Positions 1,482-25,080 of a DNA stretch of 45,006 nt are shown here, piece by piece. Origin of the DNA: a virus; UHGV virus genome UHGV-0250353; one strand, written 5' to 3'. The translations under genes were made by a program, and so were the position numbers. Each line of letters begins with the position of its first letter. Within the stretch, counting starts at the first letter, position 1. Under the pieces are notes generated by a model. It did not search any database. It had not been told where the DNA came from and saw only the letters and a list, made by a program, of their open reading frames with translations.

Positions 1482-3791
1482 TTAATACCCCGGCTGACCG
1501 CGAGTAGAGCGGCGAGCTTTAGAAATCGGTGAGTTGTTATCCTGTAACTGCGACGCTACTGTTTCACTGATTATAATACGTAAACGCCCTTCGTCATCAC
1601 GTTCTGTTACAGCAGAATCTACGCGCCCCGTAGTGTTATTAACTATAGTGACGTTATCACCGCCGGACTGGCCACCGTTTTGCCCCATAATCTCTTTCAT
1701 CTGCTGCGCAGTTCGTACGCGCGATGCGCCAGCAGGCATGATAACTTCCGGTTTGCCGCGTTCTGCGATGGTAGACATCTGCCCCGCTGATAACTGACCG
1801 CCCTGCTCACGTGCCGAGCGGATTTTGGCGATATTAGCCAGCCCCGCGGCAACGGCAGTACCTGCGGCAACCGGTGCCAGGAATGGGCCGACAACCGGTA
1901 TCGCTGCGGTAGACTTATATGCTTCGATAGCCGAGGTGTATGTTGCGATAGTGGCCTGGGCAATAGCAAACGCTTTATACGCGGTGGACGCCTCGCCAAA
2001 TGCCGTTTTAGCATTAGCTGCCATGTCACCGAAAGAACTACCTAAAGCCTCGGCGCGCTTCGTAGCATACTGCTCATTGATAGCGTTAAGCGCCGCCTGA
2101 TACTGTTCCTCGTTAATAAGCCCCTGTTCTCGATACTTATCAGCGACAGCCAGTTTCTGCTGTTCCTGGATGTCGAGGAGCTCAAGCTCAGCGGCGTTCT
2201 GCCCCATAATCTGGGCCATGAAGTCATCGCCTTTCTGCTGCTTTTCCTGCTGCTCTTTTCTTTTCTTATCCAGTTCTTCCTGTCTGGCCTGCTCGGCTGT
2301 GAGCATAATTTGAGTTTTGGCGTTTTCGTATTGCTGCTGGCTTATCGTTCCTGCGCGGTTGAACTCTTCAAGTTTTGCCAGTTTCTGCTCTTCGGCCGCC
2401 GTGATGCGAGAAATTTCATCTCCGGTTGTACGGTCAACCGTAGCAAGGAAATCTTCCGCGGCTTTCTTCTGGCGTTGTGCCGCCGTTTCTTCACGTTTGG
2501 CCTGCGCCGCCAGACGTTTCTCGTTCGATTTAGCCTCGCGGTCTGCCTTCTCTTTCTCGGTCTTGTCAATGCGGGCGATGTCTTGCTGTGCTTCCGTGTC
2601 ACGAGCAGCATTATACGCGGCGATCTGTTCTTTGGTTACAGCTTCACGTTTAGCAAACGCCTGCTTATCCAGTTCAGCTTGCGCCCGGATGCGCTCACGG
2701 TCGCTTAAGATGGCGATTTGCTGATTCTTGACGATAGCTTCGTTCTGCTCCTGGAACCTCTGCGTGGTTGAGTTAACGTTACGACCGAGATTCTTTTGGG
2801 CTTCCGCCGCTGCGTTTGCGGACTTCTCCGCGTTCTCCAGTGCTGTGGCGTTCTTGTTGGCGTTGTCTGTCAGGCGGATAAGTTCCGGATTCAACTGTTT
2901 TGTGTTACCGAGCCAGTCGGTAAACACATCGGCGATGCGGCGGGCATTCTCGGCGGTTGGCTCTTTGTTAAACGCGCTCTGCGCCGCTATCATCTCCAGC
3001 GCCTGGTCACGGTTAACCCCGAACTTACTGCTAAGCTCCGCTATATTCTGCGCCAGCATGTTGACGCCTACGATGTTACCCTCGTAAGTGCCGCCAAGTT
3101 TTTCTAACGTGTCGCCTACATCCGCACCCTTAGAGACCAATGCATCGTACTGGCTAATAGCGGATGCCGTGGAGGCTTTCCATGTCTCCCATGACTCGGC
3201 GTCCTCGCGGACAGCTTTAGCTGTTTGCTGCGCGATAAGGTCTGCGTTAGCCTTAGCCAGAGCAAGCTGAGTCTCCGCCGCTTCTCTGCTGATTTGGGTA
3301 AGCTGGATAAGGCCGTCTGTCAGTTCGAGGGAGCCAGATGCCGTTTGCTGGAAGGTGTCTTTTAACTGTTTCTGCGCGGCTTCCAGGTCTTTTGAACTGC
3401 CTTCTGCTTCGGTTAGCGATTTGTACAGGACACCGCCGATTGCCGAAGCAAGAGCAATCACAGCCCCGAGCACCGCGCCACCAGGTCCGAAAGCACCAGC
3501 AAGCTGCGAACCTTGTTGCCCGATTGCTACGAATGCAGACGTGCCGGATTGCAACTGGACTACCATGTCCTGCACCTGGAAGCCAACCTGCCCTGCAGCG
3601 TTACGGAACTTAGCGAAACCGTCGGAGGCCGCTTTAGACGTAGCGGAGTTTACTTTATTAACGTCCGGCGTTAGTTTGTTTACGGATGTGTCCGCCCGGT
3701 CTGCGGATGCCGCCATAGCGTCAAGCTGTTTAGCGGCCGCATCAGCGCCTTCTGTTTTTACTCTGGCAATTAGGGAAGCCGTATCAGCCAT
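1482..3791 (-). CDS. tail tape measure protein
   Basis: about 770 aa Ala/Gln/Glu-rich coiled-coil protein immediately downstream of chaperone pair; ATG 3791 with GAGG RBS preferred over TTG 3806 used by ORF track. Confidence 0.8.
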   Translation of the reverse strand: MADTASLIARVKTEGADAAAKQLDAMAASADRADTSVNKLTPDVNKVNSATSKAASDGFAKFRNAAGQVGFQVQDMVVQLQSGTSAFVAIGQQGSQLAGAFGPGGAVLGAVIALASAIGGVLYKSLTEAEGSSKDLEAAQKQLKDTFQQTASGSLELTDGLIQLTQISREAAETQLALAKANADLIAQQTAKAVREDAESWETWKASTASAISQYDALVSKGADVGDTLEKLGGTYEGNIVGVNMLAQNIAELSSKFGVNRDQALEMIAAQSAFNKEPTAENARRIADVFTDWLGNTKQLNPELIRLTDNANKNATALENAEKSANAAAEAQKNLGRNVNSTTQRFQEQNEAIVKNQQIAILSDRERIRAQAELDKQAFAKREAVTKEQIAAYNAARDTEAQQDIARIDKTEKEKADREAKSNEKRLAAQAKREETAAQRQKKAAEDFLATVDRTTGDEISRITAAEEQKLAKLEEFNRAGTISQQQYENAKTQIMLTAEQARQEELDKKRKEQQEKQQKGDDFMAQIMGQNAAELELLDIQEQQKLAVADKYREQGLINEEQYQAALNAINEQYATKRAEALGSSFGDMAANAKTAFGEASTAYKAFAIAQATIATYTSAIEAYKSTAAIPVVGPFLAPVAAGTAVAAGLANIAKIRSAREQGGQLSAGQMSTIAERGKPEVIMPAGASRVRTAQQMKEIMGQNGGQSGGDNVTIVNNTTGRVDSAVTERDDEGRLRIIISETVASQLQDNNSPISKARRSTRGQPGY

Positions 3792-4170
3792 CTTCTCTGC
3801 CCTCAAATATTCCGTCTAAGCCCATGATAACCTCGGCTTCGAACAAACTTATGCCGTAACCGGCGACATCACGAAACGCTACCAAATCTTGCCATTTGAG
3901 CGCATCGCGCGGGATTATAACGATAGTATCATCTGTTTCGCGCTGTAGGAATTTAATGGCACGGTATTTCTCGAACACGTCGATAAGAGAAACGGGGCAT
4001 TCTGGCCCCGTCGCTTCTTTCATCTGCGGTTCTTTAATCACACCCATTGCGATCAAAGCTGCTTGATGCCCCGCCGCGATGTCGTCGAATTGCTTACGTT
4101 TCTGGCGGTCGACAAAGCACCATTGCGCAAATTCATACAGCGCTTTTACTTTTCCGAGAGTTTCTCGCGG
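3784..4170 (-). CDS. tail assembly chaperone, -1 frame extension (GT-like fusion partner)
   Basis: reverse frame -1 relative to 4146..4562 is open from 4170 to stop 3784..3786; no ATG of its own (track start is TTG 4056); overlaps GGAAAAG at the last codons of upstream ORF. Confidence 0.4.
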   Translation of the reverse strand, partial: PRETLGKVKALYEFAQWCFVDRQKRKQFDDIAAGHQAALIAMGVIKEPQMKEATGPECPVSLIDVFEKYRAIKFLQRETDDTIVIIPRDALKWQDLVAFRDVAGYGISLFEAEVIMGLDGIFEGREDG

Positions 4171-4562
4171 CTATCGGTGTGGTGTTTAACTACGGCTTCT
4201 GCCAGTCCGCTGTACTGGTCTAACAGGTTAGCCAGCGCCTCTTTGCTGAACGGCTCGTCGAATGACCAACCGGTGACGATGTCGACAGCGAGCTGCTTGT
4301 TCAGGTCCATCACCCGCCAGCCCTTCTCATCGTTATAGCGCGCCCAGTTATTCAGCGCCTCGCACTCTTTATCTAATGGCGCAAGTTCTTCCGTAAGGCG
4401 TCGAATTGCCGTTGTGTAGGCGCGGCCTGCACGAACACCCGCATCACAATCGGGGCCAATGACCTGCAGCCATTCGCCGGAGTCTTTACCGCTCGGCAGG
4501 AGGATAGGCATTTTAGTACCAGTAGCGTGGCGGTCGGCAAAATAAAAATCAGAAAGTTTCAT
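4146..4562 (-). CDS. tail assembly chaperone (G-like)
   Basis: 138 aa ORF, ATG 4562 with AAGGA RBS; position between major tail protein region and tape measure; followed by -1 frame ORF. Confidence 0.55.
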   Translation of the reverse strand: MKLSDFYFADRHATGTKMPILLPSGKDSGEWLQVIGPDCDAGVRAGRAYTTAIRRLTEELAPLDKECEALNNWARYNDEKGWRVMDLNKQLAVDIVTGWSFDEPFSKEALANLLDQYSGLAEAVVKHHTDSREKLSEK

Positions 4563-21289: not shown

Positions 21290-21319
21290 GTCAATTGGTA
21301 AAATAAAACCCGGATTCGC
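21290..21319 (-). terminator. intrinsic terminator AACCCGGA...TCCGGGTT
   Basis: 8-bp stem, A/T-rich flank; tandem with 21185..21215 after endolysin. Confidence 0.5.
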
Positions 21320-21457
21320 GGTCCGGGTTTCGGTCATAAGCCCCTGAACCCTACGCAGTCTCCACCGCTTGGGCTGCTGCTTCAGGTTTACCAGGGCTTA
21401 GTATGCAAGCACAAGCAGCGTGGAAGTAATTTTACTAAATGCCTTCGTATTCGTCCA

Positions 21458-21943
21458 TCATTTAACGGCTCTCCCAATAGCCTCAGCCTCTTGCCACGGT
21501 TTACCGTCGAACAGCGCCAGACGCCCGGCTGCACGGCGACGCAGGCCGAGTAATGGTTTGCCGTTCTGGTTGATGAACAGCGCCAGCTTGGCACGCAGTG
21601 TTGCAATATCACCTGAGCGCAGCGCCTTACCCGTGCCAGTAGTAGCCGCAATCACACCAGCACCCGCGTTGTAGACCAGGTCACACACAGCGTCGAACTG
21701 CGCCTGTGTCAGTGAATGGTGCGCCACCGAATCCACCGCAGCTACGGCCTTAGCCATATCGCGATTAAGTAACAGGAGGCCTTGTCCCGGTGTGATGGTC
21801 TTGCCTGGAGTCACGTCCGGCCCGTAGTGGCCGTAGCCAATAGTAAGGTACTTCTCATTCGGCGTAGCACGATACGCAGTTCCGCGGAATCCCTCGAACG
21901 CAGCACAGAAATGCAATCCATTATCTGAAATATTTCGAGACAC
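21458..21943 (-). CDS. endolysin, T4/P22-type lysozyme (GH24-like)
   Basis: ISDNGLHFCAAFEGFRG...YLTIGYGHYG matches phage lysozyme N-terminal catalytic region; GTG 21943 with GGAGGA RBS preferred over TTG 21994. Confidence 0.75.
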   Translation of the reverse strand: MSRNISDNGLHFCAAFEGFRGTAYRATPNEKYLTIGYGHYGPDVTPGKTITPGQGLLLLNRDMAKAVAAVDSVAHHSLTQAQFDAVCDLVYNAGAGVIAATTGTGKALRSGDIATLRAKLALFINQNGKPLLGLRRRAAGRLALFDGKPWQEAEAIGRAVK

Positions 21944-22193
21944 GCTTATGTCCTCCGTATGACAGCCACGCCTGACGAATCTGGCGCAGCGCAACTAATG
22001 TGATTAATGTCTCAGGCAGCGTAGGTGACATGCTGCCCTGTAACAGGTGGATGCATCCGGCGGCGCAGACGATAGCAGTCAGGATATAGAGCACCCGGCC
22101 AAATAATCCGTCGTCCACGCTGGGGTGATACACATTAAACAGCGATGCGCCCCCGATGGCCAGCATACCGCCGAACCAGAATAACTCATTCAT
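21921..22193 (-). CDS. holin/antiholin-like membrane protein
   Basis: 90 aa with two hydrophobic helices, between holin and endolysin. Confidence 0.5.
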   Translation of the reverse strand: MNELFWFGGMLAIGGASLFNVYHPSVDDGLFGRVLYILTAIVCAAGCIHLLQGSMSPTLPETLITLVALRQIRQAWLSYGGHKRVSKYFR

Positions 22194-22494
22194 CCGGGCC
22201 TCCTCGACGTGAGATGTATTCCCCGGCGACGATACCGGAGAGGCGGGAATAGATGGGCATCCAGAGAATGGCGATGATGAATCCGAGGCCAGCTATCTCT
22301 CGCTCCCCAGTAATGCCAAACCATTGCGCGGCAAGAGGTGCACCAAACACGGCACAGGTGAAGCCGGTTGCAATAAAGCAGAAGCCGTCAATGGGGCCAG
22401 AAATAACGGACTTATGTTGTCGTAGTCCGATTACCCCTCCGGCTAGCGCGGCAGCGAGAAGCCAGCCCGTCACTGTTTCAGTAAATTTATCCAA
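22186..22494 (-). CDS. holin (putative, three TM segments)
   Basis: 102 aa, three hydrophobic segments, TTG start with GGAGGA RBS, heads lysis cassette. Confidence 0.55.
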   Translation of the reverse strand: MDKFTETVTGWLLAAALAGGVIGLRQHKSVISGPIDGFCFIATGFTCAVFGAPLAAQWFGITGEREIAGLGFIIAILWMPIYSRLSGIVAGEYISRRGGPDE

Positions 22495-22553
22495 GATGAA
22501 TCCTCCAGGTGCGTATTAAGTATGCAGTAACTGGAGGATACCACGGGTAGGAA

Positions 22554-22994
22554 TTATCCTAATAGTTGTTTGGTAATAATCTTGCCGCCGGTGTTGGTGT
22601 CGAACTTCGATGCAACAGCTACGCCGCCATGTGCTGAATAACCACATTCCATAGCCGCCAGTGCATAAGGAGAGCCGGACCCAACGGCGGCAAAACCGTC
22701 TGCAATAGGGATAACAGAGCTTAGTGCACAATCCCATGATTTATAGAACGCGACTTTATACACCTTTTCTGTGTCTTTCACGAACACAAGGGCTTCGAAA
22801 TCGAAGTCGTATGATTTTGGATTAAGTACGCCATTATCACGGATTAGCATAACCCCAACTCCTGCGTCCCCGGCTACCCCAATTATGAAATGGTCATTCT
22901 CGTATATCTTTGTGTCTGTGTTGTAACAGTTACTCCCGCACACAACACAGGTGTCACAGGCCATTGTCTTTCCGTCAAACGCGATAGTCGTCAT
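22554..22994 (-). CDS. HslV/proteasome-like Ntn-hydrolase peptidase
   Basis: MTTIAFDGK N-terminus (Thr after Met), K...IIGVAGD, GSGSPYALAAM aligning by eye to HslV motifs; GGAG RBS. Confidence 0.6.
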   Translation of the reverse strand: MTTIAFDGKTMACDTCVVCGSNCYNTDTKIYENDHFIIGVAGDAGVGVMLIRDNGVLNPKSYDFDFEALVFVKDTEKVYKVAFYKSWDCALSSVIPIADGFAAVGSGSPYALAAMECGYSAHGGVAVASKFDTNTGGKIITKQLLG

Positions 22995-23284
22995 TTATGT
23001 CTCCAGATGTATTGTCGTCTCTGTGGTTTCGTCGGGATATCTTCATACCCCAGCGATTTCCAGTAATTAAATAACCGGTTAGCGATTGCTGCGCGTTCCT
23101 GTGTTTTAAACTCACCCAGGTTAACTGCCTTCCCGTTCTGGAACCCACAGGCGCGGATAGCTTTGCGCCTGGCCTGAATCTCCGGGTACAGCGCGTTACG
23201 GCGGCGCTTGTGTATTCGGGCGGTTGCTCTCGGTGACAGCGGCACGAGGCCGCTTCGTTTCAGGATGTCAGTTGCCCGGCTCAT
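22991..23284 (-). CDS. hypothetical basic protein with AP2-like segment
   Basis: ATG 23284 (ATGA overlap) preferred; GKAVNLGEFKTQERAAIA resembles AP2-type DNA-binding pattern. Confidence 0.4.
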   Translation of the reverse strand: MSRATDILKRSGLVPLSPRATARIHKRRRNALYPEIQARRKAIRACGFQNGKAVNLGEFKTQERAAIANRLFNYWKSLGYEDIPTKPQRRQYIWRHK

Positions 23285-23580
23285 GCCATCCTCCCACATT
23301 TCGAGCATGTCTGGAAGTCGTCCACATCGTGCATAACCCACTCATGCTTGCATACCTGCGCATCCTCTTTACGGCAACCGGACTGCCCCGTAACATCTTC
23401 AACCCCTTCCACGTGTGTAACGGCCCCACAGTTCACGCACTCGACATAATCCGGGAACTGGTCTTTGTATTTCTGTAACTCGGCTTCGAGCGCCATTAAA
23501 TCAGAGTACCGCACGCGCACATACTCGCCGCTATATTGGGCCTCCGGCGACAGTGTACGCCAGTCGAATAGTTTAATCAT
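23281..23580 (-). CDS. zinc-ribbon protein (paralogous C-terminal module)
   Basis: ATG 23580 with GGAGG RBS; C-terminus CRKEDAQVCKHEWV...CSKCG shared with 24020..24589. Confidence 0.5.
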   Translation of the reverse strand: MIKLFDWRTLSPEAQYSGEYVRVRYSDLMALEAELQKYKDQFPDYVECVNCGAVTHVEGVEDVTGQSGCRKEDAQVCKHEWVMHDVDDFQTCSKCGRMA

Positions 23581-23818
23581 CACCGCGCCTCCGTAAATCG
23601 CGAAGCGCAATAATCCCGTCTAACATTCCGATGGCGTGGTCGACTGTGAAATCCTCATCCTCACAAAGATTCCGCAGATGTAATACGGCCTTGACCAATT
23701 TATGGTAATCCTCTGTGTAACAAAGCTCGCCCTCTTCCGCGCGCTGTTCGTTTAACTGAAATAGCGTTGCGCCAGGTACAGTACCAAGCGGAACAGCATT
23801 AAAAGTACGAATAGTCAT
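23573..23818 (-). CDS. hypothetical protein
   Basis: ATG 23818 with AGGAG RBS preferred over upstream start of ORF track. Confidence 0.45.
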   Translation of the reverse strand: MTIRTFNAVPLGTVPGATLFQLNEQRAEEGELCYTEDYHKLVKAVLHLRNLCEDEDFTVDHAIGMLDGIIALRDLRRRGDD

Positions 23819-23819
23819 G

Positions 23820-24023
23820 TTATTTCTCCTGTTTACCAAGTCGCTTAGGTGAGCAAATAGCGCGTACCTCTGAATCGTTGGGCTTGTCACCCTGGAACAG
23901 GAAGTGCGCGTTCTCTGCGGCGCGTGCCGCTGACTGGCACGCCTCCATCGAGTAAAACGTTTCCGATGTCGCCAGGTGCATCTGGCCTGCGGACAGTACC
24001 CATATAAATAAGATGCTGGTCAT
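23820..24023 (-). CDS. small protein with N-terminal hydrophobic/signal-like segment
   Basis: ORF track 67 aa; MTSILFIWVLSAGQMHLA. Confidence 0.45.
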   Translation of the reverse strand: MTSILFIWVLSAGQMHLATSETFYSMEACQSAARAAENAHFLFQGDKPNDSEVRAICSPKRLGKQEK

Positions 24024-24589
24024 TTCAGTTTAGCCCCGCAATCAAGACACTTTTTAGTAAAACCCGGCGCAAAGCCTTTGCGCAAACCGACGGTATTAGC
24101 GTGTTGGCAATCGCTCGATTCCGATTCTTGCTTACCGCATTTAGCGCAAATGAAGTAGTCCCCTTTTTCATCTAGCACCCAATCATGCTCGCATTCCTGA
24201 GTATCTTCCTTACGGCAATCAGATTGCTCAGGTTCATGCGGAAACTTATTAGCTAGAACGGATACCTGCCTACCGAGTAAATTAAGCGCTTTCTGCAGCT
24301 CTGTCTCCCGCGCCGACGCATCGCGTAACTGATTCTTAAGTGACTGCAACTCATGCGCCAGGTCTTCGCACTGGTTGTTATTTACCTGCTGACGTAAACT
24401 GTCTTTCAGCGCTCGTATTTCGTCGTCCTTACCGGCGATATGCTGCTGTAGGTTGTGAATTACCTGCTTGACCTCATCAAGGTCGGATATCCGCACAGAC
24501 ACATCGAAAGATGTGACATCTTTCTTATTTACCTGCTGCCGTAGCTGGTCAATCAGGTACTCGAATACTACATCATTTGCGTTCTGCAT
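24020..24589 (-). CDS. coiled-coil protein with C-terminal zinc-ribbon module
   Basis: 189 aa; CRKEDTQECEHDWV...CAKCG and CLDCG motifs. Confidence 0.55.
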   Translation of the reverse strand: MQNANDVVFEYLIDQLRQQVNKKDVTSFDVSVRISDLDEVKQVIHNLQQHIAGKDDEIRALKDSLRQQVNNNQCEDLAHELQSLKNQLRDASARETELQKALNLLGRQVSVLANKFPHEPEQSDCRKEDTQECEHDWVLDEKGDYFICAKCGKQESESSDCQHANTVGLRKGFAPGFTKKCLDCGAKLK

Positions 24590-24745
24590 TTTTAGCCTCT
24601 CTGTTCATAAGTTCCAGTAATAACCTAGCTGTTTGGCGCTCACGGGTGTTTCTCGGTGACGAGGCGTAGAACTCTAGCACCTCGCGTGATGGTTCTTGTG
24701 CGGTTTTACTGTTCACTCTGTCTCTCCACTCGTTGGTGTAAATGA

Positions 24746-24774
24746 ATAGTAGCCTATTCTATCTCAGTGTGCAA
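24746..24774 (-). promoter_or_regulatory. sigma70-like promoter TTGCAC-N17-TACTAT with operator GAATAGtagcCTATTC (24744..24759)
   Basis: read on minus strand; identical architecture to 26253..26281 and 4670..4698. Confidence 0.45.
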
Positions 24775-24781
24775 GTAAATT

Positions 24782-24955
24782 TTATTGGCGTGTTATAGAA
24801 TCTATGAACGACAGTAACGCGCGCTCCGCTTCTGCTTCTCTTTCTTCAAGCGACCAGGTAGCGGATTCCTCTGTTGCCGTTGCTATATCTGTTTTCACAT
24901 CAATCATCGTGTTGATTAACGCGATTAGTCGTTCGGCCTGTTCTTTAGTAATCAT
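24782..24955 (-). CDS. small hypothetical protein (57 aa)
   Basis: ATG 24955 with GGAG RBS; hand translation MITKEQAERLIALINTMIDV...; antisense to ORF-track ORF 24804..25016. Confidence 0.4.
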   Translation of the reverse strand: MITKEQAERLIALINTMIDVKTDIATATEESATWSLEEREAEAERALLSFIDSITRQ

Positions 24956-25080
24956 TGTTGCATCTCCTGCAATAGTCGCTTCTATTGTTGCGTTTGGTGA
25001 AATAGAACAAAAATGAGAAAAATGATACGCTGCTGTGTAGCAGCGTAAGTCACAAAGCCAAATAGTAACCTATTGACCTG

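Follow-up and report, generated by a model that had tools for sequence, protein, structure and literature searches.

A probable PPH-type proteasome/HslV homolog encoded upstream of the holins in a Guernseyvirinae-like phage genome

The PPH family was described and named in 2021 as proteins of about 140 residues from Caudovirales phages and prophages (Fuchs et al. 2021; PMC8665760). It was placed in group I together with HslV and BPH, its second helix H2 being missing, and its reference sequence is WP_042125023.1 (PMC8665760). In HslV from E. coli, the pocket for the C-terminal tail of HslU comprises F54, F57, Q114 and A79/K80 (PMC6429459). Proteasome homologs encoded by phages are recognised as a family; literature searches yielded no experimental study of any PPH.

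The window analyzed here is the whole 45,006-nucleotide stretch of the viral genome UHGV-0250353. A 3.3-kb region of it matches 358 phage records, nearly all from Salmonella and Escherichia siphophages of the subfamily Guernseyvirinae (Kagunavirus, Jerseyvirus), while ten further ORFs of 349-755 aa encode helicase-primase, helicase, exonucleases, terminase, portal, head and tail proteins; the window is thus essentially a whole phage genome of the Guernseyvirinae type. The product of the gene in question reads MTTIAFDGKTMACDTCVVCGSNCYNTDTK..., and re-reading the DNA returned the same 146-aa frame with the N-terminus MTTIAFDGK as the sequence-only reading, which had given no strand; the frame is on the minus one (Table 1). 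Between the preceding in-frame stop and the ATG at 22994 there is no other start codon, and hence no further N-terminal extension of the 146-aa protein is possible. With the stop of the upstream ORF this ATG shares the sequence ATGA, the true start of that ORF probably being internal, near residue 20. The probable start of the endolysin was placed by analogy, since the annotation of relatives has a 23-nt overlap with the holin.

Table 1. Features of the PPH gene and its surroundings in the window (conservation is given for 132 distant representatives unless stated otherwise)
Feature	Coordinates	Strand	Remarks
PPH-type proteasome/HslV homolog (probable), CDS, 146 aa	22554..22994	-	stop codon included
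Thr2 codon, predicted N-terminal nucleophile (Thr1)	22989..22991	-	T 130, S 2 of 132; T in 118/120 close clusters
Asp14 codon	22953..22955	-	D 130, E 2 of 132; aligned with catalytic Asp17 of E. coli HslV
Lys29 codon	22908..22910	-	K 132/132; aligned with catalytic Lys33 of E. coli HslV
Gly42 codon, second Gly of G-x-A-G	22869..22871	-	G 131/132; aligned with the second Gly of HslV GFAG
Gly105-Ser106-Gly107 codons	22674..22682	-	G 132/132; S 122 + T 6 of 132; G 132/132
D132-T-N-T135-G136 codons	22587..22601	-	D 126/132; T/S/C 88/26/18; G 116/132
Residues 13-23 (CDTCVVCGSNC), beta hairpin with four Cys around catalytic Asp14	22926..22958	-	gap-free alignment to HslV
Shine-Dalgarno GGAG	23001..23004	-	6 nt 5' of the PPH ATG, read directly from the sequence
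Upstream ORF, phrog_9632	22991..23341	-	stop overlaps PPH start; upstream of PPH in 10/10 Guernseyvirinae loci
Holin, phrog_2359	22186..22494	-	59 bp downstream of PPH; relatives annotated holin
Second holin, phrog_2508	21921..22193	-	holin in the annotation of relatives
Endolysin, lysozyme family	21458..21943	-	GTG start at 21943 probable

In the records of related phages the gene is annotated as "peptidase HslV family", "ATP-dependent protease" or "NTN-hydrolase superfamily protein". Relatives are present in 349 phage records and in prophages, the bacterial family members residing in the latter. The closest protein, 96% identical, comes from the Salmonella phage VT223 and carries the GenBank label "peptidase HslV family"; since this label is already attached to relatives, the finding is not new, and the protein, belonging to a family named in 2021 and annotated in databases, is already known. 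The models of defence systems in PADLOC gave no match. Variable presence of the gene in Kagunavirus records from E. coli was suspected at one point, but both records checked, Escherichia phage NTEC3 (L089) and phage G AB-2017 (L090), carry it under the bare label "hypothetical protein". In NTEC3 (Kagunavirus) the region of small ORFs upstream of PPH contains an inserted homing endonuclease gene (3230-3703 of that locus).

As a single sequence, the protein stays below the thresholds of the established models. PF00227 scores 18.8 bits against a Pfam gathering threshold of 22.4 bits, the HslV equivalogs TIGR03692 and NF003964 score 15.7 and 14.8 bits against cut-offs of 157.75 and 137, the HslV and proteasome models of NCBIfam give E of about 0.002-0.02, and phmmer against PDB gives E of at least 0.014. 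The matches became significant only when profiles were used, and it is these that decide the assignment: PHROG 1040 ("peptidase HslV family") is matched with E=5e-34. A search of 1.84 billion representatives yielded 3,849 relatives at E<=1e-3, mostly of 135-160 aa and matched from residue 1; among the best 150 of these 3,849, 120 start with MTT. The profile of 123 family sequences matches HslV in PDB (1m4y) with E=3.3e-12, proteasome beta5 with about 7e-11 and BPH with 1e-9, and PF00227 is found at E<=0.01 in 75 of the 126 sequences of the family alignment, the window protein included (best 1.3e-8).

The comparison of the family profile with HslV from E. coli by hhalign (97.2% probability, E=4.6e-11) pairs M1-T2 with M1-T2 of HslV, Lys29 with the catalytic Lys33, IIGVAGD with VIAGFAGG, and GSGSPYALAA with GSGGPYAQAA, reproducing the matches at K29 / IIGVAGD and GSGSPYALAAM that had been seen by eye. 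A proteasome-type four-layer alpha-beta-beta-alpha Ntn sandwich is predicted for the window protein, the model being built on the 126-sequence alignment that includes distant relatives (26 close homologs alone gave pLDDT 34). The sequence-only reading had proposed an HslV/proteasome-like Ntn-hydrolase with Thr directly after Met, to be given up if profile searches yielded no significant match or the predicted fold lacked the sandwich; it holds, as the profile matches are significant and the fold of the model is that of the proteasome. The protein is also shorter than HslV, as had been noticed, mainly due to the loss of the HslV region around positions 64-86, corresponding to helix H2, the alignment gap spanning about 60-85 of HslV. 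The best viral structure match is BFVD entry A0A1W6DWU9 (263 aa), with 54% identity over 131 aligned columns; this protein either contains PPH as one domain of a longer chain or has a mis-called start.

Judged by the described features of the family, the gene probably encodes a PPH-type protein, that is, a member of the phage branch, about 140 residues long, of proteasome/HslV Ntn threonine peptidases. In particular, the protein has 146 aa, and in the model its last strand ends at residue 143, with no C-terminal extension. It is encoded in a Guernseyvirinae-like phage genome. The model has a single helix at residues 46-53, followed by a loop to the strand 66-72, where relatives have a helix pair. 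Residues 82-87 (nt 22734-22751) form a six-residue insertion, AFYKSW, followed by the conserved Cys89; the block is specific to PPH proteins of Guernseyvirinae, corresponds to a gap in about 126 of 132 distant relatives and is modelled with lower confidence (pLDDT about 80).

Conservation of the active site was counted in a MAFFT alignment of the window protein, 132 distant representatives and HslV from E. coli (Table 1). The nucleophile and the equivalents of Asp17/Lys33/Gly47 and Ser129/Asp166/Ser169 are all present, as T2, D14, K29, G39/G42, S106, D132 and T135. Gly42 is matched by alignment to the putative oxyanion-hole region, Gly47 of the proteasome, and G-S-G at 105-107 is equivalent to G-S-G of HslV and to the proteasome motif with Ser129. 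The D132-x-x-T135-G136 motif, in whose D-x-x-T columns HslV from E. coli has C..T, we take to be the D166-x-x-S169-G170 motif of proteasome beta subunits. In the 120 closest clusters, too, the catalytic positions show little or no variation. Such near-invariance means that the protein is very probably catalytically competent, with the chemistry expected from the family.

The likely course of catalysis can be outlined by analogy with characterised relatives. Methionine aminopeptidase is expected to remove Met in front of small second residues, and by this rule the host enzyme would remove Met1 and expose Thr as residue 1, so that a propeptide would not be needed. The Thr hydroxyl would attack the peptide bond, with Lys29 and Asp14 completing the triad, the backbone of G-x-A-G (Gly39/Gly42) forming the oxyanion hole, and Ser106, Asp132 and Thr135 holding Thr1 in place. 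Assembly into a ring is probable, as in HslV, BPH and 20S.

The genomic context depends on the lineage. In ten of ten Guernseyvirinae loci, from both Kagunavirus and Jerseyvirus and with PPH identities of 58-96%, the order is phrog_9632 ORF, PPH, holin, holin, endolysin. All ORFs were clustered from 80 viral loci with a family member, these ten and 70 others, and a related endolysin is found within 4 kb in three of the 70. No neighbour conserved beyond single lineages emerged from the clustering of the 80 loci or from pairwise comparison of neighbours in six contexts (the two largest "neighbour" clusters of the survey were discarded as antisense shadows of the PPH gene itself). In other phages PPH is located next to terminase or portal genes (about 24 loci), between the head-tail adaptor Ad1 and the head closure Hc1 (10 loci, one lineage of uncultured viral contigs), in the RNA ligase and NAD-salvage region of a roseophage, and at the early-late boundary of Variovorax and Undibacterium prophages. 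PPH behaves as a stand-alone accessory gene, and its adjacency to lysis genes is a lineage trait. The place just upstream of the holins, which had been pointed out as unusual, is real in this phage, with two holins and the endolysin directly downstream, and co-occurrence with lysis genes extends to the ten Guernseyvirinae loci, but it is not a property of the family.

Several of these contexts have features of their own. In the Ad1/Hc1 loci (L033, L036, L044, L053, L058, L062, L064, L065, L075 and L078; PPH at about 4001-4430 in most) the gene is inside the morphogenesis module, where it closely follows the scaffold and major head genes. In the Klebsiella myophage vB_KpnM_15-38_KLPPOU148 (L002, 3502-4816) PPH is one of four genes that form a moron-like cassette, which runs on the opposite strand and separates tail genes, the tail sheath being on one side and the tape measure on the other. 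In the prophage of Variovorax sp. PMC12 (L005, 8459-10086) the gene after PPH encodes a hydrophobic protein of 245 aa, in which membrane-spanning segments are apparent by eye, and a CAP12-PCTIR_TIR domain protein follows on the opposite strand; the region is a possible islet of defence or counter-defence genes at the early-late boundary.

In the window, PPH would be an accessory gene translationally coupled to the small upstream ORF and transcribed as part of a long leftward unit running into the lysis and packaging genes. Given this position, PPH of Guernseyvirinae could act on a holin, an antiholin or a host envelope-biogenesis protein and thus help to set the timing of lysis. The gene order kept across Kagunavirus and Jerseyvirus is in line with such a role, as is the scan of 21300-25000 for promoters and terminators, in which nothing convincing appeared between PPH and the holin (promoter-like sites in this region were fewer than in shuffles). 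Moreover, a lapB deletion is reportedly rescued by overproduced HslV from E. coli, through turnover of LpxC (PMC7730581). On the other hand, conserved order in one subfamily can result from simple inheritance, and outside Guernseyvirinae the gene resides among head-tail connector, terminase/portal, nucleotide-metabolism or tail genes, a related endolysin being nearby in only the three loci mentioned above. A role linked to lysis is improbable, though rated marginally above the other alternatives.

The preferred reading, a peptidase that acts alone, was compared with a hybrid protease, in which the phage protein would dock to the host HslU (ClpY) and the resulting ATP-dependent enzyme would redirect host proteolysis. 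HslV is among the closest solved relatives of the protein, and both E. coli and Salmonella, the hosts, have HslU. No unfoldase is encoded by the ten window ORFs of 349-755 aa (three larger ORFs were outside this screen), and no linked ATPase or unfoldase gene was found across the 80 viral loci, which leaves the host as the source of any ATPase. No hslU accompanies the gene as an operon partner, the neighbours being small ORFs, holins and the endolysin. In the columns of the tail pocket of HslV, the window protein has V48 (for F54), I51 (for F57) and P96 (for Q114), while the segment with A79/K80 is deleted, so that the tail-pocket residues differ and the H2 segment is absent. The pocket alignment argues, indirectly, against canonical docking of HslU and leaves the hijack of HslU suggested by the sequence-only reading unsupported; the hybrid protease is accordingly improbable, somewhat more so than the link to lysis. 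With no linked ATPase gene, no helix H2 and no HslU tail pocket, PPH most likely acts alone, as an ATP-independent peptidase whose substrates would be peptides, unfolded proteins or one specific target.

Departing from hydrolysis altogether, the fold could catalyse peptide ligation or transpeptidation, as in connectase, or the protein could be catalytically silent and structural. We consider this about as improbable as the hybrid protease.

The N-terminal hairpin was considered separately, as its four cysteines had been taken for a metal-binding insertion. The cysteines are indeed present (C13, C16, C19, C23), but the segment is not an insertion: in the MAFFT alignment it matches, without gaps, positions 17-28 of HslV counted with Met (16-27 of the mature protein), the window protein being four residues shorter than HslV upstream of it. 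The strands of the hairpin in the model are 10-14, 16-19 and 23-26. Across the 132 distant relatives, position 13 is A/S/G, position 16 is R/Q/L (the arginine of the proteasome "D-T-R"), position 19 is G/D/S, and position 23 is L/V/K.

Of the 120 close clusters, 119 have C13, 28 lack C19, 45 lack C23, and none has C16. Kagunavirus-type proteins mostly have C13, R16, C19 and C23, Jerseyvirus-type ones C13 and C16 only, and the protein of phage NTEC3 C13 only. All four cysteines occur together only in the window protein, as compared with the 120 close clusters, the ten Guernseyvirinae loci and four named phages; codon 16 reads TGT in the window, as against CGT in phage VT223. Cys16 had for a time been regarded as unique to the window phage, which was dropped in view of the Jerseyvirus-type proteins. 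Relatives carry one, two or three of the cysteines, and none of the four positions is kept in the family, which leaves a conserved tetra-Cys metal site unsupported.

In proteasome beta subunits the equivalent hairpin lines the substrate channel. By analogy, the Cys-bearing hairpin (residues 13-26) would be the substrate-channel strand, and the variation of its lineage-specific residues more likely serves to tune specificity than to bind a metal. A more far-reaching proposal, based on the gene order in one subfamily, is that PPH of Guernseyvirinae has been recruited to the lysis programme, with the Cys hairpin as a redox- or metal-sensitive timing switch; if so, the substrate could be a holin or antiholin, which PPH would process, or a protein of host envelope biogenesis, which it would degrade. 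We regard it as a long shot, slightly behind the hybrid protease. Least probable is an enzyme regulated by metal or redox state, in which the cysteines of CDTCVVCGSNC would form a functionally important zinc or redox site: four Cys within 11 residues on adjacent strands of one modelled hairpin, around the catalytic Asp, and the nearly constant C13 of close relatives point that way, while the variable Cys set in Guernseyvirinae, the wider family without any conserved Cys position and the gap-free alignment of the segment point away from it.

Two small ORFs further upstream, 23281-23610 and 24020-24589, both on the minus strand, encode proteins of 109 and 189 aa, which match phrog_6094 and have a common Cys-rich C-terminal motif, ..CRKEDxQxCxHxWV...C[SA]KCG.. 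Their sequences resemble those of zinc-ribbon proteins, and the two are apparently tandem paralogs; as Cys4 candidates they outrank the hairpin of PPH.

For the catalogue of the family the window gene adds nothing new, and the Cys "insertion" and the lysis position fail as family properties. Still, a well-behaved member from an easily grown phage of E. coli or Salmonella would be a convenient system for studying the action of a minimal, partner-less threonine peptidase during infection.

The protein was also compared with the closest known systems. HslV (ClpQ) is about 30 residues longer and has helix H2 and the residues of the HslU tail pocket; the window protein, lacking these, has the proteasome-type D-x-x-T-G where HslV from E. 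coli has C..T, is far below the HslV equivalog cut-offs, and has no adjoining hslU. Beta-proteobacterial BPH (PDB 5ovs) has about 185-200 residues and both helices of the first pair, and its gene is chromosomal, unlike the phage-borne one considered here. With 20S proteasome beta subunits (PF00227, MEROPS T1) the protein shares the fold and the full set of catalytic residues, including the Asp166/Ser169-type motif, but it is about 60 residues shorter, has no propeptide and no alpha-subunit partner, and as a single sequence is sub-threshold for Pfam. As in the PPH family (Fuchs et al. 2021), it has about 140 residues, an origin in tailed phages and prophages, Thr after Met, the Thr/Asp/Lys/Gly core, no H2 and no C-terminal extension, and none of the tested features differs. 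Within PPH, Guernseyvirinae proteins stand out by the variability of the Cys hairpin and by short insertions specific to their lineage, at residues 53-54, 82-87 and 91-92.
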